DNA from: a virus
Lineage: Duplodnaviria > Heunggongvirae > Uroviricota > Caudoviricetes
Virus record (IMG/VR): IMGVR_UViG_2547132273_000014
Location: 1-6,592 of that record
DNA length: 6,592 bases
Strand: one strand, 5' to 3'
Position numbers and translations under genes: made by a program
Part shown: positions 1 to 6,592 of the stretch, one piece after another
How positions within the stretch are numbered: position 1 is the stretch's first letter
Layout: every line of letters starts with the position of its first letter
The notes under the pieces: generated by a model
What the model was told of the DNA's origin: nothing
Databases searched by the model: none
What the model saw: only the letters and a program-made list of their open reading frames with translations

Positions 1-156
1 TTCGGTATCGATATGAACACCGACCACACGCTGGAAGAAGTGGGTAAACAGTTCGACGTTACCCGTGAACGTATCCGTCAGATCGAAGCGAAGGCGCTGC
101 GTAAACTGCGTCACCCGAGCCGTTCTGAAGTACTGCGTAGCTTCCTGGACGATTAA
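1..156 (+). CDS. rpoD: RNA polymerase sigma-70 factor, C-terminal end (5'-partial, truncated by window start)
   Basis: Frame 1 translates to [51 protein letters not shown], which I recognise as the region 4 C-terminus of E. coli sigma-70. TAA stop at 154-156, followed by hairpins and a T-run. Confidence 0.93.
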
Positions 157-209
157 TCGGTAGGCCGGATCAGGCGTTACACCACATCCGGCACTTTTCC
201 CTTTGCACA

Positions 210-236
210 AACGCCACCTTTTCGGTGGCGTTTTTT
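210..236. terminator. Rho-independent terminator shared by convergent rpoD and mug
   Basis: GC-rich stem AACGCCACC (210-218) / GGTGGCGTT (224-232) with 5-nt loop, then T6 (231-236) on the plus strand; the complementary A/T run gives a weaker U-tract on the minus strand just after the mug stop (235-237). A second hairpin (GCCGGAT 164-170 / ATCCGGC 186-192) lies upstream. Confidence 0.7.
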
Positions 237-741
237 ATCGCCCACGCACTACCAGCGCCTGGTCCAGTTCCCGATACGCCTCAACCAGTTTCTCCAGTGA
301 AACGCGACTTAAACCGCTGGGATTTGGCAGTACCCAAATCTGCGTCGAACCAATAGTGAGCGTTTGCTTCCCCCACTGTGCACCGCGTTGGCTGAATCCT
401 TGCTCAAACGCCTGTTTGCCCAGAATTGCCAACGCTTGTGGTTGGTAATCTTCAATTTTTTCAATCAGCTTACGCCCGCCTGCGTGCAGCTCCTGCTTTG
501 AAACTTCATTGGCTTGCACTGTTGGACGGTCTACAAGTTTGGTGACACCACAACGATAATCCAGCAGATGCTGTGCCTCCTGCGGCTTCAACTGACGGTC
601 GGTAAACCCAGCCTGATATATCACCTTCCAGAAGCGATTTGCCGGATGAGCAAAGGGAAAACCAGTTCCGGCGGATGAAAGACCAGGATTGATACCGCAA
701 AACACAACCCGTAACCCTGGAGCCAAAATATCCTCAACCAT
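235..741 (-). CDS. mug: G/U mismatch-specific DNA glycosylase (Mug)
   Basis: 168-aa [43 protein letters not shown]... matches my recollection of E. coli Mug in length and sequence; it sits convergent to rpoD, as in the E. coli chromosome. Confidence 0.9.
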
Positions 742-827
742 ATTTACTCCTTTCTAACATCACCAGGAAAAGTATAACGGATTGAAAATACATTGTTTAT
801 AAAAACAGCAGGCGAGCGGTAATGGCT

Positions 828-855
828 GGATTGCGACACGGAGTTACTTTATAAT
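828..855 (+). promoter_or_regulatory. Candidate sigma-70 promoter for the tRNA gene (consensus -10 TATAAT, weak -35)
   Basis: Perfect TATAAT at 850-855, about 10 nt before the tRNA 5' end at 866. The best -35 candidate is TGGATT (828-833, 16-bp spacer); a better hexamer TTGCGA (832-837) has only a 12-bp spacer. The -35 assignment is uncertain. Confidence 0.4.
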
Positions 856-865
856 CCGCTACCAT

Positions 866-941
866 GGCCCCTTAGCTCAGTGGTTAGAGCAGGCGACTCA
901 TAATCGCTTGGTCGTTGGTTCAAACCCAACAGGGGCCACCA
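866..941 (+). tRNA. ileX: tRNA with CAU anticodon; by genomic position (downstream of rpoD-mug) the minor isoleucine tRNA (lysidine-modified)
   Basis: 76-nt cloverleaf: acceptor GGCCCCT/AGGGGCC, D-stem GCTC/GAGC, anticodon stem GGCGA/TCGCT with loop CTCATAA (anticodon CAT), T-stem GTTGG/CCAAC, discriminator A and encoded CCA (939-941). Isoacceptor identity (Ile2 versus Met) is inferred from context, not from the sequence alone. Confidence 0.85.
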
Positions 942-949
942 TATCTATC

Positions 950-986
950 AAGGGGTTACGTTAACAGCGTGACCCCTTCGTTTTTT
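950..986 (+). terminator. Rho-independent terminator following the tRNA
   Basis: Stem 950-960 pairs with 968-978 (AAGGGGTTACG / CGTGACCCCTT, one G-U pair), 7-nt loop, then CG + T6 at 981-986. Confidence 0.55.
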
Positions 987-987
987 C

Positions 988-1007
988 TAGGATACCTATA
1001 GGATACC
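988..1007. repeat. Tandem direct repeat TAGGATACC-TA-TAGGATACC (11-bp period)
   Basis: Exact 9-mer at 988-996 and 999-1007, immediately after the tRNA terminator. Candidate recombinase or arm-type binding site at the island boundary; function not established. Confidence 0.45.
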
Positions 1008-1266
1008 GTGACAGAGTATAAGCAGGTATAAAAACAACAAGTTACGCAACATCATACCTGTCATGAAACTTTAACTATCCGACATGATAGCTGGTCGATG
1101 ATCACGGATAATCCGTTATGTGGATCCCCATATCGGCATCAGGCCCACCAGCGTGAAGCGTTTTTCATTTTTCGCGGGTATAAAAAATCGATGGGGCTGG
1201 CAGTCCGGAAGACGTCAGGGTACAGAGATTTGACCCGCCCCTCCCTGTGCATGGGCACAATAAGTA

Positions 1267-1292
1267 ACCGAAGGCGGAATTCCGCCCTCGGT
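1267..1292. promoter_or_regulatory. 26-bp near-perfect palindrome (core GGCGGAATTCCGCC)
   Basis: ACCGAAGGCGGAATTCCGCCCTCGGT; 14-bp perfect core at 1273-1286, arms extend to 13 bp with one mismatched pair (1272/1287). No adjacent U-tract on either strand, so it is not an intrinsic terminator. Confidence 0.4.
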
Positions 1293-1326
1293 ACTCACAT
1301 ATGAGAAACGATATTTCTTCCTCTGA

Positions 1327-1397
1327 TACCCAAAATATGGGTATCACAAGTAACCCCCAAAATCTGGGTGTTGCTCTTACTACCCAAACTACGGGTA
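1327..1397. promoter_or_regulatory. Array of three 17-bp palindromic operator-like sites (YACCC-N7-GGGTR) at an exact 27-bp period
   Basis: TACCCAAAATATGGGTA (1327-1343), CCCCCAAAATCTGGGTG (1354-1370), TACCCAAACTACGGGTA (1381-1397). The centre-to-centre spacing is 27 bp twice and the spacers are A/T-rich. Confidence 0.5.
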
Positions 1398-1417
1398 GTT
1401 TCCGTAATTTCATGGTC

Positions 1418-1464
1418 GAGTTGCAGATCTGCAACTCACCCACCAGCCAACGCAATTTTGCGTT
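1418..1464. promoter_or_regulatory. 20-bp perfect palindrome GAGTTGCAGATCTGCAACTC (1418-1437) plus 7-2-7 inverted repeat AACGCAA-TT-TTGCGTT (1449-1464)
   Basis: Both are exact in the sequence and lie 20-65 bp downstream of the stop of the 126-aa minus-strand ORF. Neither is followed by a U-tract. Confidence 0.45.
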
Positions 1465-1482
1465 ATCGGGAATATCAGCAAG

Positions 1483-1863
1483 TTACCGCCGCAGCCGTTC
1501 CGGCTTCTTCCACTGGTAAGTATTTTTCGCGCTCTCCCTCCGTTGTTGAGAACGGCGACGGTATGCCAGCAACTCAAGGACTCTGGTTCGTATGTTGCAC
1601 ATATCCACGCCGTTAAGCTCAATACCATCACGGCGCATCACCTCAGCAACAACACGCGCGTAATTTTCGGCTATCACGCTGTCCGGCTGCGTGGCCTCCT
1701 GTTCGCCAGCCTGCTGGCTGATTCCGGTAATACTGCGGATTATCCCGAGCGCTTCGGTCTCGGTCATGGTCATGGTCATGGCCTCCATAGTGATGGCGGG
1801 TCCTCCTTGTGGGGTGCCCTGCCACGGGGCGGGAGCATCGCGGAAAAAGGCTAGTTTTTGCAT
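1483..1863 (-). CDS. Hypothetical protein downstream of the small terminase gene (start uncertain, likely internal at about 1773-1788)
   Basis: 126-aa ORF in the same orientation as the packaging genes, with a basic C-terminus. The first ATG (1863) lacks an RBS. A GGAGG at 1783-1787 precedes three tandem in-frame ATGs formed by (ATGACC)x3 at 1762-1779; the ATG at 1771-1773 has the best spacing (8 nt). I recognise no protein family. Confidence 0.4.
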   Translation of the reverse strand: MQKLAFFRDAPAPWQGTPQGGPAITMEAMTMTMTETEALGIIRSITGISQQAGEQEATQPDSVIAENYARVVAEVMRRDGIELNGVDMCNIRTRVLELLAYRRRSQQRRESAKNTYQWKKPERLRR

Positions 1864-2024
1864 TTTTATTCGTCATCACCACCAATGCAATATATTGATA
1901 TGACTTGATGTTTTATTTTTCGGTGTCGATTTCGATTGTTTTTTGTTCATCACTGACGCATAACGCCCACCAGCGCAACGCTGAAAGCCAGTCAGTAAAC
2001 TGGCTTCGGTCATTGTGCACTACG

Positions 2025-2567
2025 TTACTTGTCTTTATCCGGCTGAAACTTATCAGGCACATTTCCGGTAGTTTCCATCAGATAATCGGACAGCATTCGC
2101 GGGATGTTTTCATCAAGTTTTGTGCATGCGTTACAGGCTCTGACAACTTCTTTTTTCAGGCCATCCAGCATGACGGGGGTCATCTGTGGGAAGCTCCTTT
2201 GCATAGTAAGCGGGAGGCTGTCCATGATTGATGAAATCTGACTCGCCAGTTTTGAAAGCGCGTACATGCAAAACTCTGTATCAATCACGTCACCGCGATC
2301 GCGCTCGTTTTTAAGTTCCTGCGCCTCCGCCTGTGCTGTCAGTAATCTGATCCTGACTCGTAAGAGTTCATCATCATCAATCTCGCCTTTGTCGTTTGTA
2401 AGCTGGCTAATTGCATTGTTAACCCTATTGTCTATCACGCTGGCAACATCATAAAACGCCTCACGGCCTTTACGTTCAACGGGAGTCACTCCCCACTTGT
2501 CGAATGCTGTAGCACTTACCCGGCAGCTTTGCGCCATGGTTTTTTTGTTCATCAGGTGCGATTTCAT
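2025..2567 (-). CDS. Phage lambda Nu1-like terminase small subunit (TerS)
   Basis: The translation aligns along its whole length with lambda gpNu1 as I recall it, for example RLLTAQAEAQELKNERDRGDVIDTEFCMYALSKLASQISSIMDSLPLTMQRSFPQ against lambda RLTRAQADAQELKNARDSAEVVETAFCTFVLSRIAGEIASILDGLPLSVQRRFPE, and C-terminal DENIPRMLSDYLMETTG against DELIPGLLSEYIEQSG. The N-terminal segment MNKKTMAQSCRVSATAFDKWGV is more divergent. It lies immediately downstream of a cos site, as in lambda. The ORF-track start at 2570 is TTG; ATG starts are at 2567 and 2552. Confidence 0.85.
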   Translation of the reverse strand: MKSHLMNKKTMAQSCRVSATAFDKWGVTPVERKGREAFYDVASVIDNRVNNAISQLTNDKGEIDDDELLRVRIRLLTAQAEAQELKNERDRGDVIDTEFCMYALSKLASQISSIMDSLPLTMQRSFPQMTPVMLDGLKKEVVRACNACTKLDENIPRMLSDYLMETTGNVPDKFQPDKDK

Positions 2568-2574
2568 CAATATC

Positions 2575-2745
2575 CCAACTTGGTCAAGGTTTCAGGTTGG
2601 TGTGTTGGTGTTATCTTTCCCTTTTTATTCATGGAGATAGAGCAAACAACAAAACCACCACCACCACCCTGAAAAAGCTCATAAATAGCGAAAAACCGCG
2701 AGGTCGCCGCCCCGTAGCCTACCGGATCGCCGGAAAGGACCCGCC
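2575..2745 (-). other. Lambda-type cos site: cosQ-like and cosN (12-nt cohesive end GGGCGGCGACCT, 2701-2712) with a divergent cosB-like region toward the TerS start
   Basis: The minus strand reads GGGTCCTTTCCGGCGATCCGGTAGGCTACG-GGGCGGCGACCT-CGCGGTTTTTCGCTATTTATGA, which is almost base-for-base the lambda right-end/cos/left-end sequence as I recall it (lambda: ...GGGTCCTTTCCGGTGATCCGACAGGTTACG GGGCGGCGACCT CGCGGGTTTTCGCTATTTATGA). The 130 bp between cosN and the TerS start do not resemble lambda cosB. Confidence 0.8.
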
Positions 2746-2768
2746 AGCCAGAACGGGCCCTAATTTCA

Positions 2769-3152
2769 TCAACCAATCAACTTATAGCGACCATCCCGTG
2801 CATTGCGACGTACACGCTCAATCTTGAGGCATAGCGCCGCATCTGGCTTTTTTGGGACAGGTACGCGGCAATATTCAGAAGCTCGAGGAATATTGTTTAT
2901 CCAGTCGATCACTTCACTTAAATACCAGGCCTTACGCCCTTCCGTAACCTGTACGCGCTCGGGGAACTCTCCGCGAGCCTCAAGGTTTAGCAATGTGCGA
3001 CGGCTAAGGGTAGTAAGTTCCATCACCTGATTCATATCAACAAGGCGTTCACTTAAACGCATTTTGTCAGCAATAGCCTTTAATTCCTCTACTGCTGGAT
3101 CCGGATACATCATTTCGGCAATTGGCTTAAGGTCATTGTAATGATTCTGCAT
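2769..3152 (-). CDS. 127-aa DNA-binding protein with an AlpA/Vis/excisionase-type winged HTH (MerR superfamily), flanked by N- and C-terminal extensions
   Basis: Central motif MELTTLSRRTLLNLEARGEFPERVQVTEGRKAWYLSEVIDWI fits the AlpA/Vis-family pattern (L-x-x-LSR-x-T-L...G-x-FP-x-x-V...GR-x-A-W...E-V-x-x-WI). Strong RBS AGGGGG 5 nt upstream of the ATG at 3150-3152. The stop at 2769-2771 is about 25 bp before cosQ. Confidence 0.65.
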   Translation of the reverse strand: MQNHYNDLKPIAEMMYPDPAVEELKAIADKMRLSERLVDMNQVMELTTLSRRTLLNLEARGEFPERVQVTEGRKAWYLSEVIDWINNIPRASEYCRVPVPKKPDAALCLKIERVRRNARDGRYKLIG

Positions 3153-3163
3153 TGTATCCCCCT

Positions 3164-3505
3164 TTACACACGAGCCAGCGGCTGAACAGAAATACCTGAG
3201 CCAACAAACGCGGCAACCTTTGCCGACAGTTCTTTTACAGACTCAGGCCAGTTCAGAGCATCAACATTTAAAACACCTGTCTTATAAACCTGTGCCTGTG
3301 TTTTTTTCGCTGTGTCGATTTGTACAGCGGAAACATAAACCGCTTTGCCTGCGCTCGTTCCATCCCATACCACTAGCGCACCAGTTGCATCTTCCTGCAT
3401 CAGTGGCGTAAACGCAGGTATTACCCCTTTATTGGCTGAAAATATCCCCAGCGTAGTAACCAGTGCTTCAGTGCCAGACATGAGTTCAGTGTAATGAGTA
3501 GCCAT
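3164..3505 (-). CDS. Lambda gpD-like head decoration protein
   Basis: 113 aa, against lambda gpD at about 110 aa. Shared motifs with lambda D as I recall it: [27 protein letters not shown] against [42 protein letters not shown] against [25 protein letters not shown] against TAFAGTAISIV. RBS AAGGGGGAG overlaps the upstream stop. Confidence 0.82.
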   Translation of the reverse strand: [113 protein letters not shown]

Positions 3506-3514
3506 TGCTCCCCC

Positions 3515-4561
3515 TTAGCCAATGCGAACGGTAACAAAACGATTGATGCGGGCCGGTATTGGCTGTGGTGCTGAATGTGTCTGCACATATTCAATAGCCG
3601 GATCACCAGGCACAATATAGTTTTTCGGTGCAAGTTCGGCTTTAGTCAGCCCCATCCGAATTAGCTCCGGATCCTGAATACCGCCATAAGCGACAATCCC
3701 CTGAAGAGCCGTATTGCCAAGCACCATCAAATCAGGATCAAGGAAATATTTTTCAGTTCCGTCCTCGTCGGTATAACGCCCGCTGTAAACAACAATCGCA
3801 ACATCGCCCATATACCCTTTAAAACTCACCGAATCACCAAGGTCTTTAAGGGCCGTTTCCAGTTCGGAATTAGAACCTCGACGGGTATCCAGAGCCTCTT
3901 TTACAGCTCTGAATGAGCGGTATTTTTTCCATACATTGCCGCCCATAATAATGATATTAGTGACTCCCTCACTAAATTCTGCGTAGCTCTCAATATCATC
4001 ATTTGGATCAAAAGATCCTTTATCCTTACCTGACCACTCAGCACCGCCAGACTGAGTGATGATATTTTGTGGTTTAATATTCCAGTCCAGTTCATAACGT
4101 TCAATACCATCGCCCTCAATGATATTTTTCCCCGTTGTGATTGCCTGAACAGCAAGCCATTCAATACGTGCACGTATAGCTTTAGCCTGATTTACAATCG
4201 CCTGTTTAACTTTAATATTACGCGCCCCAAAAGCATTGTATTGTTCAGGTGATACACCAGCAGGGCGCACAGCTAACTTATTTGGATCAATGCTGCTTTT
4301 CGGTTTCATATAGCCAGGGCGAATTGTTTTTGATTCGTATCCCTCATCTCGTGAAACTTTACTGCCCACCATAGGAGAGCAAAACGCCGCGATCGGGATA
4401 TTTGGATCGTCGATCGTATCAAGAATAATGTCTCTCGATTCAAACATTACCGAGCGAGTGAAAAACAAACTGGTAAACAACGCATTTAATTTTTTTTGCA
4501 CATCTTCAGCATTAGCCACCTGCACAAGCTGTGTAGGCGAATATAAATCAACCATACTCAT
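3515..4561 (-). CDS. Lambda gpE-like major capsid protein
   Basis: From the internal start MSMVDLYSPTQL... (ATG at 4559-4561; alternative ATG at 4553-4555) the product is 348 aa, against lambda gpE at 341 aa, and aligns throughout with lambda E as I recall it: ITQSGGAEWSGKDKGSFDPNDDIESYA against ITQSGGTEWSKRDKSTYDPTDDIEAYA; LDTRRGSNSELETALKDLGDSVSFKGYMGDVAIVVYSG against LDTRRGSNSELETAVKDLGKAVSYKGMYGDVAIVVYSG; MVLGNT...YGGIQD against MVLGNT...YGCIQD. The ORF-track N-terminal 27 aa (MHLVACIR...) are probably not translated. Confidence 0.88.
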   Translation of the reverse strand: MSMVDLYSPTQLVQVANAEDVQKKLNALFTSLFFTRSVMFESRDIILDTIDDPNIPIAAFCSPMVGSKVSRDEGYESKTIRPGYMKPKSSIDPNKLAVRPAGVSPEQYNAFGARNIKVKQAIVNQAKAIRARIEWLAVQAITTGKNIIEGDGIERYELDWNIKPQNIITQSGGAEWSGKDKGSFDPNDDIESYAEFSEGVTNIIIMGGNVWKKYRSFRAVKEALDTRRGSNSELETALKDLGDSVSFKGYMGDVAIVVYSGRYTDEDGTEKYFLDPDLMVLGNTALQGIVAYGGIQDPELIRMGLTKAELAPKNYIVPGDPAIEYVQTHSAPQPIPARINRFVTVRIG

Positions 4562-4726
4562 CCTCTTTACATTCATTACAAATAATTGTGAATATATTCT
4601 ATTACCGATGTCTGCTATGCGAATACATGCAACCAAGTGCAATGTTGTATAAAATCTGCCGTGACAACTTCAGTGCTGATAATTCGTGTTAATGTATTTA
4701 CTTCCTTTGGTCGGGATTTATGTAGC

Positions 4727-4761
4727 ATGCCGGAAAATCTATTTTCTTCCGGCATTTTTTT
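4727..4761 (+). terminator. Plus-strand-oriented intrinsic-terminator-like hairpin in the SSB/capsid intergenic region
   Basis: 9-bp stem ATGCCGGAA (4727-4735) / TTCCGGCAT (4747-4755), 11-nt loop, then T6 (4756-4761). On the minus strand the run is A-rich before the stem, so it is not a terminator for the flanking minus-strand genes. Confidence 0.4.
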
Positions 4762-4772
4762 ATTTGCAGAAT

Positions 4773-5195
4773 TTAAAACGGTATATTATCGCCGTACGGA
4801 TCATCATTCCCCGACTGTTGTTTTGCCCTGTTCAGTGCGTCAGTAGCCTGGCCCTGTTGACCTTTTTTGCCGCCCGGTCGCGCCGTTCTGGCACTGATTA
4901 CACTGTCTGCGATAACCTGCCAGCCCTGCCGCGTTTCGCCGTTCTGGCCTGTCCACTGGCTTACCTGCATGTTACCCGCCACGCTCACCAGTTCGCCTTT
5001 GTGGTGTTTTGCCAGTGCGTCGGCCTGTCTGCCAAACGCCAGGACGGATAACCACATCGTCGCCGTTCCGTCATCTGCCTGGCTGCACGGAAGTGGGACC
5101 GCCATACTCGCCATCGTCATTTGTGTACCCTTGCTGGTGGTCTTTAACTGCGGGTCAGCCACCAGCCGCCCGTAAGCCGCTATCTGTGCTGTCAT
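4773..5195 (-). CDS. Single-stranded DNA-binding protein (SSB)-like, with acidic C-terminal ...DNIPF tail
   Basis: 140 aa. The OB-fold region resembles E. coli SSB as I recall it: IAAYGRLVADPQLKTT against VILVGNLGQDPEVRYM; MWLSVLAFGRQADALAKHHKGELVSVAGNMQVSQWTGQNGETRQ against [45 protein letters not shown]. A Gly/Gln-rich linker leads to a terminal DDPYGDNIPF, compared with SSB DDDIPF. The start ATG overlaps the stop of the upstream ORF (ATGA). Confidence 0.72.
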   Translation of the reverse strand: MTAQIAAYGRLVADPQLKTTSKGTQMTMASMAVPLPCSQADDGTATMWLSVLAFGRQADALAKHHKGELVSVAGNMQVSQWTGQNGETRQGWQVIADSVISARTARPGGKKGQQGQATDALNRAKQQSGNDDPYGDNIPF

Positions 5196-5437
5196 GCTGT
5201 CTGCTCTCCGGTTTTAACGTTGATGGTTGTCACCTGTTCCGCTTCGGCAATCTCCCGTTCTGTCAGCGTGGCAAAGTTTGCAGCTGCCGTTGTCATGAAT
5301 GAGCTAATCAGTTCGGGATGTGCTTTCGCATATCCTTCCCCGGCGTTGCGGTCGATGATTTTTATCGACACCCTTAACCAGTGTTCCGTCAAATCAAGGG
5401 CGTGCGATTGTGATTTTTTTGTGTGCTTCGCTGTCAT
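5192..5437 (-). CDS. Hypothetical 81-aa protein, translationally coupled to the SSB-like gene
   Basis: ORF MTAKHTKKSQSHALDLTEHWLRVSIKIID... lies between the iteron array and the SSB-like gene in the same orientation, with a 4-bp ATGA stop/start overlap. I recognise no family and the RBS is weak. Confidence 0.45.
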   Translation of the reverse strand: MTAKHTKKSQSHALDLTEHWLRVSIKIIDRNAGEGYAKAHPELISSFMTTAAANFATLTEREIAEAEQVTTINVKTGEQTA

Positions 5438-5482
5438 AGGCTTTATCTCACAGCAGTAAATTAAAATTTTTGCGTTTTAACC

Positions 5483-5712
5483 CTTCACCTGTTCACCTTT
5501 TGATATTTTATCTTTTAATTCATAATGTTAAGGGGTGAACAGTTTCACAAAAACTATTCACCAACTGTTCACCACTGTTCACCCTTGAAGCTCAATAAAC
5601 AATCAAAAAGGTGAACAGTGAATAGTTTGGTGAACAGTTCATAAATAACTGTTCACCCTATAACATACTGATACAAAAGATATTTATGACAGGGTGAACA
5701 GTGGTGAACAGT
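5483..5712. repeat. Iteron array: at least 9 perfect copies of TGTTCACC / GGTGAACA (10-bp unit ACTGTTCACC) in both orientations; P4 ori/crr-like primase-binding repeats
   Basis: Forward TGTTCACC at 5490, 5566, 5576 and 5650. Reverse GGTGAACA at 5534, 5610, 5629, 5693 and 5703. Degenerate copies at 5483-5489, 5555-5562 and 5618-5625. Interspersed A/T-rich tracts (5461-5480, 5498-5530). The array sits directly after the stop of the primase/helicase gene. Confidence 0.8.
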
Positions 5713-5724
5713 TATTCCATAAGT

Positions 5725-6592
5725 TTAATTTTTGCTATCGTCATTAGTGACCGATACACATGATGGCATCCAGTCTTCTGATTCCTCCGTCAGTGTCACG
5801 TTTGAACGCAAACCGTGCTTCGTTTTCCGTTTCATATACTCCCTGCCATATTCCGCCATTGCCCCCGGCATATCTTTACCGAAGCGCGTCAGTGTTACAG
5901 GTTTACCAAACCCATGTGCCCTCATATAAGCCAGATAGGCATGATAGAGATACCTGCGTGGGCTGAATGGCACAATTTCAGCATTACCCACTAACAGGCC
6001 ATCACACATTACCGACGCCATGAGATAGCCGCAGAAGTCCACCAGCGAATCCCCCTCTCGCTTTATCGCCAGTGCTTCTTCAGATTTCTGCTGCTCATAT
6101 AACAGGCGTCTGGCTTCGTCCTGGTCAGCAAACCGTGTAAGCAGATGGCGAATCACTACCGCCAACTCACCTTCTATTTTTTCCGCCAGCATTGGATCGC
6201 GTTCGTTCTCCGGTACAACTTCCGAAAAATTGAATATCACCCGACGACGTGAGATCCCCCCGCTGCGGTCACTGAATGACATGGCGTTATTGTTAACCGC
6301 CAGCACTACTGCCGGAATACGCGTTGAGTAGGGGGCTTTGTGTTTCGGGTCAATTGCCACCTTGTCACCGCCTGTAATGGCCTTAATTCCTGCCCCATCA
6401 CCAGCGTAGCGGGTCATATCCGGCATGATAATCAGCGAAAAGCCAACCACTAACGCGCGTTCCCTTGCATCTTCCAGCGCCTTCATGCTTGCCGATACTG
6501 TGTTGGCCTTACCCGCCAGCATGGTGCAAATCTCCGCCATCACGCTTTTACCACTTCCCCCTGGACCTGTTACCTCAATGAATAACTGCCAG
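5725..6592 (-). CDS. P4-alpha-like primase/helicase, C-terminal helicase portion (5'-partial; continues beyond window end)
   Basis: The open frame runs to the window edge. Its translation contains the Walker A motif in ...WQLFIEVTGPGGSGKSVMAEICTMLAG... and downstream helicase-like motifs (LIIMPDMTRYAGD). It is immediately followed by the TGTTCACC iterons that are the recognition repeats of P4 alpha. The ORF-track start at 6543 is an internal GTG. Confidence 0.8.
   Translation of the reverse strand, partial: WQLFIEVTGPGGSGKSVMAEICTMLAGKANTVSASMKALEDARERALVVGFSLIIMPDMTRYAGDGAGIKAITGGDKVAIDPKHKAPYSTRIPAVVLAVNNNAMSFSDRSGGISRRRVIFNFSEVVPENERDPMLAEKIEGELAVVIRHLLTRFADQDEARRLLYEQQKSEEALAIKREGDSLVDFCGYLMASVMCDGLLVGNAEIVPFSPRRYLYHAYLAYMRAHGFGKPVTLTRFGKDMPGAMAEYGREYMKRKTKHGLRSNVTLTEESEDWMPSCVSVTNDDSKN

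Follow-up and report, generated by a model that had tools for sequence, protein, structure and literature searches.

Introduction

Two aspects of satellite packaging are established in published work: lambda-like cosN and cosQ can be joined to a foreign cosB, as in the phage-inducible chromosomal island (PICI) EcCICFT073, and satellite-encoded factors, such as Rpp and the small terminase of the Staphylococcus aureus pathogenicity islands (SaPIs), can redirect the terminase of a helper phage. EcCICFT073 also carries genes for a capsid protein (c1499) and a decoration protein (c1500) (PMC6092414; PMC6739421). In the proposal of Murialdo and Feiss, Rpp depends on the helper small terminase only for want of a large-terminase-binding domain. 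It is still only partly clear how cosB is recognized by lambda-family small terminases and how these place the large terminase at cosN. Here we analyze 6,592 nucleotides of DNA (IMG/VR virus record IMGVR_UViG_2547132273_000014, positions 1 to 6,592; hereafter the window) containing part of a PICI in which lambda-type cosQ and cosN are followed by a non-lambda cosB and by the gene for a full-length small terminase of the Nu1 family. Our comparisons favor the view that this protein reads the island's own cosB and would recruit the large terminase of a lambda-type helper.

The closest described systems are EcCICFT073-type PICIs that pair Rpp with a cos site called cos1 (Fillol-Salom 2018, 2019; Murialdo & Feiss 2022). 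The window island shares with them a backbone of capsid and decoration genes, cos, a specificity gene and an open reading frame (ORF) of about 94 amino acids, as well as lambda-identical cosQ and cosN, a foreign cosB and lambda-type helpers, and the specificity protein begins, by prediction in the island, with a winged helix-turn-helix like that of small terminases. They differ in that the island protein is a full-length, 180-amino-acid member of the Nu1 family, with oligomerization and tail regions that Rpp lacks, in that the island cosB is another sequence with an R3/inverted-R2 architecture, and in the predicted independence of the island protein from the helper small terminase.

Other satellites resemble the island in single respects. 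In SaPI1 and SaPIbov1, a satellite small terminase likewise acts with the helper large terminase so that satellite DNA is packaged, but packaging is headful (pac), the small terminase belongs to an unrelated family and interference is carried out by a separate protein (Ppi), whereas the island is cos-type, encodes a Nu1-family protein and shares cosN and cosQ with its helper. In capsid-forming PICIs (cf-PICIs), too, the satellite supplies its own capsid protein and small terminase; unlike the island, which has only capsid, decoration and small terminase genes, these PICIs also have genes for a large terminase, a portal, a protease and connectors, and tails are all that they use from the helper. 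P4 carries a helper-type cos that is cut by the helper terminase, but it contributes no terminase subunit of its own, and the P2 terminase reads the P4 cos directly. SatelliteFinder lists terS among PICI core components without giving a mechanism. The configuration in which a PICI is embedded in its helper was described by Tommasini, Mageeney and Williams, who noted captured late genes, although the elements that they studied lack terS (PMC10111431). Our literature searches, within the library available, found no analysis, experimental or otherwise, of a small terminase of the Nu1 family together with its cosB in any cos-type PICI; they retrieved the Rpp papers, the Feiss review, the description of helper-embedded PICIs and SatelliteFinder.

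Results and discussion

A lambda-type cutting site followed by a non-lambda cosB

The cos site and the small terminase gene comprise the following features, in which base pairs (bp) are numbered from the first base of the cohesive end.

2736 to 2742, minus strand: cosQ, GGGTCCT, at -30 to -24 from the first cohesive-end base, in the lambda register
2701 to 2712, minus strand: cosN cohesive end, GGGCGGCGACCT, identical to lambda at 12 of 12 positions and the single exact match in the window
2679 to 2700, minus strand: right flank of cosN, bp 13 to 34 (the position of lambda I2), identical to lambda at 21 of 22 positions
2644 to 2671, minus strand: R3-like G/T tract, bp 42 to 69, CAGGGTGGTGGTGGTGGTTTTGTTGTTT, found in the cos alignment at the same place as the R3 of phage N15 and of prophage L006
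2594 to 2606, plus strand: R2-like box, inverted, bp 107 to 119, AGGTTGGTGTGTT, found by motif scan
2569 to 2581, minus strand: degenerate R1-like box, bp 132 to 144, AAGTTGGGATATT, found by motif scan
2025 to 2567, minus strand: island small terminase, Nu1 family (PF07471, phrog_57), 180 amino acids; an alternative start at 2552 gives 175 amino acids

A preliminary description of this DNA, made from its sequence alone, had held that the 12-nucleotide cohesive end and about 30 bp on each side are nearly identical to lambda. Our comparison agrees: in an alignment anchored on cosN, 27 of 32 positions match lambda at -32 to -1 and 60 of 66 overall (-32 to +34), with cosQ in register. The number of matches to GGGCGGCGACCT expected by chance in the window is 0.01. 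Beyond this point the resemblance falls to background. From +35 to +125 the gapped alignment has 48 matches in 96 positions, and in shuffled controls the mean was 44.6 and the maximum 54. Neither a lambda R box (CGTTTCCKTTCT; CGTTTCC.TTCT) with up to 2 mismatches nor an integration host factor (IHF) consensus with up to 1 mismatch was found in the island cosB, including, for IHF, the interval between R3 and R2. Because the match around cosN is 60 of 66, similarity is at background from bp 35 and there is no lambda R box, the site is correctly described as lambda cosN and cosQ with a non-lambda cosB; the earlier statement that nothing like a lambda R site lies between cosN and the terS start also stands. 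The order of cosQ, cosN, cosB and terminase gene, all in the same orientation, is that of lambda, and 146 bp (161 bp by the alternative start) separate cosN from the start codon, compared with 191 bp in lambda.

No second cos site, such as those of EcCICFT073 and of the related islands L016 and L017, was found in the window. In L016 (~5911) and L017 (~5883), on the minus strand, a second, inverted cos lies directly 3′ of terS, and its cosB has R3, R2 and R1 boxes of the phage type. These two islands would carry one private cos and one that the helper can read, and the window island, judged in the same way, would carry only the private one.

An altered cosB of the N15/prophage type

The preliminary description regarded cosB as replaced. 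This is right with respect to lambda, but the sequence is neither unrelated nor novel: it appears to be a diverged form of the cassette found in N15 and L006, retaining R3 together with an R2 in inverted orientation and an R1 that is degenerate. L006 is an E. coli lambdoid prophage in which an N15-type small terminase gene is followed by a large terminase gene. The island cosB matches that of L006 at 65 of 94 positions, above every shuffle (maximum 54), and the positions align throughout. N15 R3, mapped at bp 48–60 (PMC9026076), is GAGGTTGTTGTTT, and L006 R3 is AGGTTGTTGTTTA at bp 49–50; R3 of the island lies as far from cosN as it does in these phages. The R2-like box of the island occupies the position of the inverted R2 of L006, AGGTTGTTGTATT at bp 107, with a diagnostic T-to-G change; L006 has a third copy of the box beyond it. 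A 13-nucleotide inverted repeat in the island (2590–2602 and 2662–2674) overlaps the R2-like and R3-like elements.

What sets the island apart from the phages is the core of the boxes, which is GGTTGTTGT in N15 and L006 and GGTGGTG or GGTTGGTGT in the island, together with the lack of an IHF consensus between R3 and R2. With homologous positions and overall sequence but changed cores, the island cosB is best regarded as a derived variant of the N15/prophage type rather than a strict member. The box sequence also pairs with the start of the recognition helix of the small terminase. In N15 and L006, boxes of the form AGGTTGTTGT occur with the helix GISVQAFDKW; in all satellites, GGTGGTGG or AGGT(T/G)GGTGT stands at the phage positions and occurs with ..(A/V)TAFDKW. 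The first helix residue is thus Q in N15 and L006, and T in the satellites of E. coli, Kosakonia and Superficieibacter and in metagenome-derived contigs (terminase cluster annotated Enterobacteriaceae).

In the alignment of satellite cos sites, the cosB blocks are conserved and the flanks drift. The block TGGTGGTGGT(T/G)TTGTTGTT is kept in the satellites of E. coli, Kosakonia and Superficieibacter and in L011 and L012, which are contigs from metagenome or read assemblies. Relatives of the island have cleaner boxes, with R2 as AGGTTGGTGTATT and R1 as AAGTTGGTGTATT (L016, L017).

We also noticed that cosB bp 55–63 of an Rpp-type cos1 (L007, 6775, minus strand) reads ACCACCACC, the reverse complement of the (GGT)n tract in the R3 region of the island. 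Murialdo and Feiss singled out these base pairs of cos1 as identical in four PICIs. The likeness could be coincidence, or it could reflect shared ancestry with an inversion.

A full-length Nu1-family protein with a predicted N15-type DNA-binding domain

The terminase matches phrog_57 over residues 1–173 (E 1.2e-51) and, over residues 64–148 only, the Pfam family Phage_Nu1 (PF07471; 81 bits against a cut-off of 30), both of which also contain lambda Nu1. Its predicted layout consists of an N15-type winged helix-turn-helix (residues ~1–60), a coiled-coil/oligomerization region (~61–145) and a tail (146–180). Identity to lambda Nu1 in successive segments is 33, 44, 40 and 31% in the 175-amino-acid numbering and 30, 43, 42 and 31% in the 180-amino-acid numbering. 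The part best kept is the central region at ~85–130 (AQELKN...FC..LS..A..I.SI.D.LPL..QR.FP), with 40–44% identity and 62–78% similarity.

The extreme C terminus of lambda Nu1 is the gpA-binding region. In the island protein this part matches lambda at 11 of 22 aligned positions, carries an extension of 13 residues peculiar to it and is no better conserved than the N terminus. Its motif, LDENIPRMLSDYL (LDE.IP..L..Y), corresponds to lambda LDELIPGLLSEYI, and P156 and Y162 are invariant in the family. The preliminary description had pictured a Nu1-like protein with a conserved C-terminal region and a divergent N-terminal DNA-binding segment. The family assignment and the conservation of the middle hold up, but the gradient is weak: the identity per domain that the description proposed as a check is 31% in the tail and 30–33% at the N terminus.

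The N-terminal segment is indeed distant from lambda but it is no orphan. The closest phage relative of the terminase is N15 gp1 rather than lambda Nu1, and its first 55–60 residues are 50–53% identical to N15 gp1 and 30–33% identical to lambda, with the shared motif AFDKWGV.PVE..GRE.F.DV. This domain is also ~50% identical to that of L006, whereas the full-length proteins are 48% identical and the C-terminal modules differ. In an AlphaFold2 model, the N terminus is arranged as a1-a2-b-b-a3, and its best Foldseek match in the Protein Data Bank (PDB) is a lambda-family small-terminase DNA-binding domain (7lwr_A; target-normalized TM-score 0.73, rmsd 1.9 Å, E 0.06), followed by MerR-like winged-helix proteins. 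A phmmer search of the terminase against the lambda Nu1 domain 1J9I gave no match. C-terminal matches in the whole-protein fold search were discarded, as the model is too uncertain beyond the DNA-binding domain.

Rpp proteins have 135–153 amino acids, their own C-terminal dimerization helices and no Nu1-type C terminus. An identity of the island terminase as Rpp was considered and rejected: a PDB search with it at E up to 1 did not retrieve RppC (6HLK/6HN7), whereas a positive control, the homologue in L007, matched RppC at E 2.4e-31, and the global alignment of the island protein with a true Rpp homologue scored 18.

Between satellite alleles, dN/dS is 0.04–0.31 across domain, middle and tail alike, and by this measure all three segments are under purifying selection. 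Synonymous divergence jumps at the tail, which points to recombination there. The C-terminal region appears to be a satellite-specific module. On the 3′ side of the terminase gene there is only the 94-amino-acid ORF, then the island end at a tRNA gene. Unlike N15 and L006, the island has no large terminase gene after terS, which is expected because the element is a satellite.

Mosaic cassettes and natural helpers

The cos-terS region is present at ≥80% coverage in 761 of 5,426 complete E. coli genomes, among them O157:H7. Some close relatives of the island sit inside portal or capsid genes of lambdoid prophages, forming helper-embedded PICIs. The satellite of N921 interrupts the portal gene and that of EP91A the capsid gene of such a prophage. 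Since the surrounding prophages in both have a cos with lambda R3, R2 and R1, a Nu1 near-identical to that of lambda and a gpA that is 100% identical to lambda over residues 1–50, and since the helper in a Kosakonia composite is likewise lambda-type, the natural helpers are, by sequence, lambda-type and the satellite cosB and DNA-binding domain are not.

The Kosakonia contig is informative in a second respect. Its satellite and host prophage share a variant cohesive end, GGGCGGCAGACT, but differ in cosB, which is GCTGGTGGTGGTGTTGTTG in the satellite and lambda-type GTCGTTTCCGTTCTTC in the helper. Because the pair share the end and differ in cosB, cosN appears to follow the helper and cosB the satellite's own protein.

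At a phoQ-adjacent site, the same slot holds a terminase of the window type (L017), a 194-amino-acid terminase (L008) or a true Rpp with a published Rpp-type cos1 (L007, whose match of E 2.4e-31 is to RppC 6HLK). The 194-amino-acid protein (P0097/P0104) is a composite: its first ~100 residues are those of phage-21 gp1, its last ~100 are near-identical to the window protein, and its phage-21-type N terminus is paired with a cosB that has 21-type R boxes (CATGTCG; L008). These combinations suggest that domain and cosB travel together as swapped cassettes. A Superficieibacter satellite shows an exchange at the other end, combining a satellite-type domain with a lambda-type C-terminal module (76–80% identity).

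A scan of species-representative genomes added only two further satellites. Many of the other matches in the scan (L026-L033, L036, L071 and others) were short contigs in assemblies of unrelated species, such as Kitasatospora, Paenibacillus and Bradyrhizobium, with the same terminase match as lambda Nu1 itself (37% identity, same query residues). They almost certainly represent lambda spike-in contamination of public assemblies.

A proposed mechanism for packaging of the island

With moderate confidence, we propose that the island's small terminase acts by binding the private cosB and recruiting the helper large terminase, with specificity set by the private pairing of domain and cosB. In this mechanism, cosQ and cosN would be kept lambda-identical so that the helper large terminase (gpA type) nicks and terminates there. 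One half of the specificity would lie in a cosB of G/T-rich R boxes (R3 at bp 42–69, inverted R2 at bp 107–119 and degenerate R1 at bp 132–144) and the other half in a Nu1-family small terminase with an N15-variant winged helix-turn-helix. After induction, the island terminase on the island cosB would bring the helper large terminase to cosN through its C-terminal LDE.IP..L..Y region. With the oligomerization region retained, a chimeric terminase would assemble on island concatemers, which would be packaged in preference to helper DNA and without need for helper Nu1. We infer DNA binding, large-terminase binding and independence from the helper small terminase from sequence comparison.

We favor this mechanism because the helpers in three composites are lambda-type, because cosN co-varies with the helper and cosB does not, and because of the exchange of domain and cosB, the one lambda-type C-terminal module and the purifying selection on all three segments. 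The preliminary description had already interpreted the protein as a small terminase evolved to recruit a helper large terminase; the comparisons lend this idea support, but the C terminus on which it leaned has diverged, and neither cassette nor concept is novel.

Several observations weigh against this mechanism. The C-terminal module is 31–44% identical to the Nu1 of the natural helpers and, to our knowledge, the small terminases of lambda and phage 21, whose divergence is comparable, are not interchangeable with each other's large subunits. Because of this divergence and this precedent, direct binding of gpA is not assured. We considered whether the tail allele tracks the large-terminase type of the helper and found no support for this, as both alleles occur in helpers with identical gpA N termini. 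The EP91A satellite has the cohesive end GGGCGTCAGGCG (L015, ~5088–5099) in an otherwise conserved cos, whereas its helper has GGGCGGCGACCT; this satellite may be defective or fitted to another helper. The lambda-type helpers are those of the three composites, and a helper of this type is only presumed for the island of E. coli FDAARGOS_1258, the genome whose record is identical to the window. The confidence of the structural model is modest (pLDDT 66 overall and ~70 for the N-terminal domain; pTM 0.28), as is the best Foldseek E-value of 0.06. Finally, packaging of lambda DNA by the N15 terminase has been reported (PMC9026076), so discrimination by an N15-like domain may be less than strict.

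How else might the cassette work? The strongest alternative is that the island protein acts much as Rpp does, co-assembling with helper Nu1 through its central oligomerization region to give a mixed oligomer that reads the island cosB and not that of lambda, the large terminase being recruited mainly by helper Nu1. Rpp forms a heterocomplex with the helper small terminase (PMC6739421), the island terminase gene occupies the Rpp slot of the same backbone, and the central region is the part best kept relative to lambda. We nevertheless think this unlikely, as the island protein has a full-length Nu1-type C terminus whose IP..L..Y motif is under purifying selection, whereas Rpp lacks a large-terminase-binding region; in addition, the Superficieibacter relative has an outright lambda-type C-terminal module, and sequence similarity to RppA–C is undetectable.

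A second alternative is that the island simply captured its cos-terS from an N15/L006-type phage that is its true helper and shares its specificity. The closeness of its cosB to that of L006, with boxes at matching positions, and of its DNA-binding domain to those of N15 and L006 fits such mimicry. However, every satellite examined, across four genera, departs consistently from the phage type both in its R boxes and in the residue that opens the recognition helix (T for Q), three of three natural composites have lambda-type helpers and none an N15-type one, and overall the terminase is only 48% identical to the L006 protein, all of which makes this account improbable. Least credible to us is that terminase gene and cosB are decaying relics and that the island is mobilized only through weak recognition of cosN and cosQ by the helper holoterminase. 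Plasmids with the EcCICFT073 cos, which has a foreign cosB, are still moved by lambda alone at a reduced level (PMC6092414), and R1 is degenerate in the window, but a relic is disfavored by the low dN/dS in all segments, by cosB blocks that are kept while their flanks drift and by the spread of the cassette through 761 of 5,426 E. coli genomes.

If the island protein does bypass the helper small terminase, the same might apply to a large class of cos-type enterobacterial PICIs, a generalization that we offer tentatively and with slightly more doubt than conviction. These islands would use mosaic Nu1-family small terminases in which swappable cassettes of domain and cosB (an N15-derived "GGTGGT" code in the window island, a phage-21 code in its sisters) are joined to a recruiting module that is either satellite-specific or of lambda type, and the N15-derived code might consist of just the Q-to-T change at the helix start and the T-to-G change in the R boxes. 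Such islands would provide a natural minimal system for the reading of cosB and the hand-over to the large terminase. TerS-type islands share backbone, cosN and cosQ with the Rpp type but encode a full-length small terminase, which makes them its natural counterpart, and the occurrence of both at one chromosomal site allows a direct test of the proposal of Murialdo and Feiss. The co-varying pairs of domain and R boxes define mutations for probing a recognition code. Since the cassette is common, including in O157:H7, it is also relevant to the spread of island-borne traits by lambdoid phages.

The island in tRNA-Ile2

The left start of the window holds the end of rpoD, mug and a tRNA gene, and all sequence rightward is integrated element. 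Its remaining features are as follows.

866 to 941: tRNA-Ile2 (ileX), CAT anticodon, annotated as tRNA-Ile
896 to 1008, plus strand: island end, with the att core inside tRNA-Ile2 (ileX) and a doubled GGATACC motif at 989–1008
1483 to 1767, minus strand: ORF of 94 amino acids (phrog_1561, no assigned function), downstream of the terminase gene and kept in TerS-type and Rpp-type islands
2769 to 3152, minus strand: AlpA-like helix-turn-helix protein, 127 amino acids (Pfam PF05930, phrog_2790), directly upstream of cos
3164 to 3505, minus strand: gpD-like decoration protein (Pfam), 37.5% identical to lambda D
3515 to 4555, minus strand: gpE-like major capsid protein (Pfam), 43% identical to lambda E

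The complete element, in E. coli FDAARGOS_1258 (locus L001), is ~10.6 kb. From its far end, outside the window, toward the tRNA gene, its genes encode an integrase, a hypothetical protein, a helix-turn-helix protein, YlcI/YnfO, an Icd-like protein, a hypothetical protein, a DUF4222 protein and a primase with a D5-type helicase; these are followed by a field of GTGAACAG iterons, an ORF of 81 amino acids, a single-stranded DNA-binding protein (SSB), the gpE-like, gpD-like and AlpA-like proteins, cos, the gene annotated "terminase small subunit" and the 94-amino-acid ORF. Most island genes are transcribed toward the tRNA gene, on the minus strand of the window, and the L001 gene map contains no large terminase, portal, tail or lysis genes. 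Because this architecture matches that of Gram-negative PICIs (~10 kb, with int, alpA, a primase-ori region, optional capsid and terS genes and a specific att site, but neither tail nor lysis genes), the element is, on gene content, a Gram-negative PICI of the EcCICFT073/helper-embedded type in tRNA-Ile2. An Rfam scan of the window found nothing beyond the tRNA.

The island gpE and gpD homologues (3164–4555) are also 43% and 37.5% identical to the natural helper proteins in N921. Deletion of the capsid and decoration homologues of EcCICFT073 reportedly left its interference with lambda unrelieved.

The ileX tRNA gene in the window is a hybrid whose 3′ part, from ~915, is island-derived. Its T arm is compensated, reading GTTGG...CCAAC compared with the native GCTGG...CCAGC, and the native 3′ fragment of ileX adjoins the integrase gene at the opposite end of the island (L001 ~19510–19555). 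A 20-bp doubled motif, AGGATACCTATAGGATACCG, lies near both ends of the island (989–1008 in the window; 19366–19385 in L001) and probably represents arm-type sites for the integrase; a doubled attP motif is said to occur in this integrase clade. At least nine GTGAACAG/CTGTTCAC iterons lie at 5487–5715, between the primase gene and the 81-amino-acid ORF, and this field is the presumed replication origin of the island.

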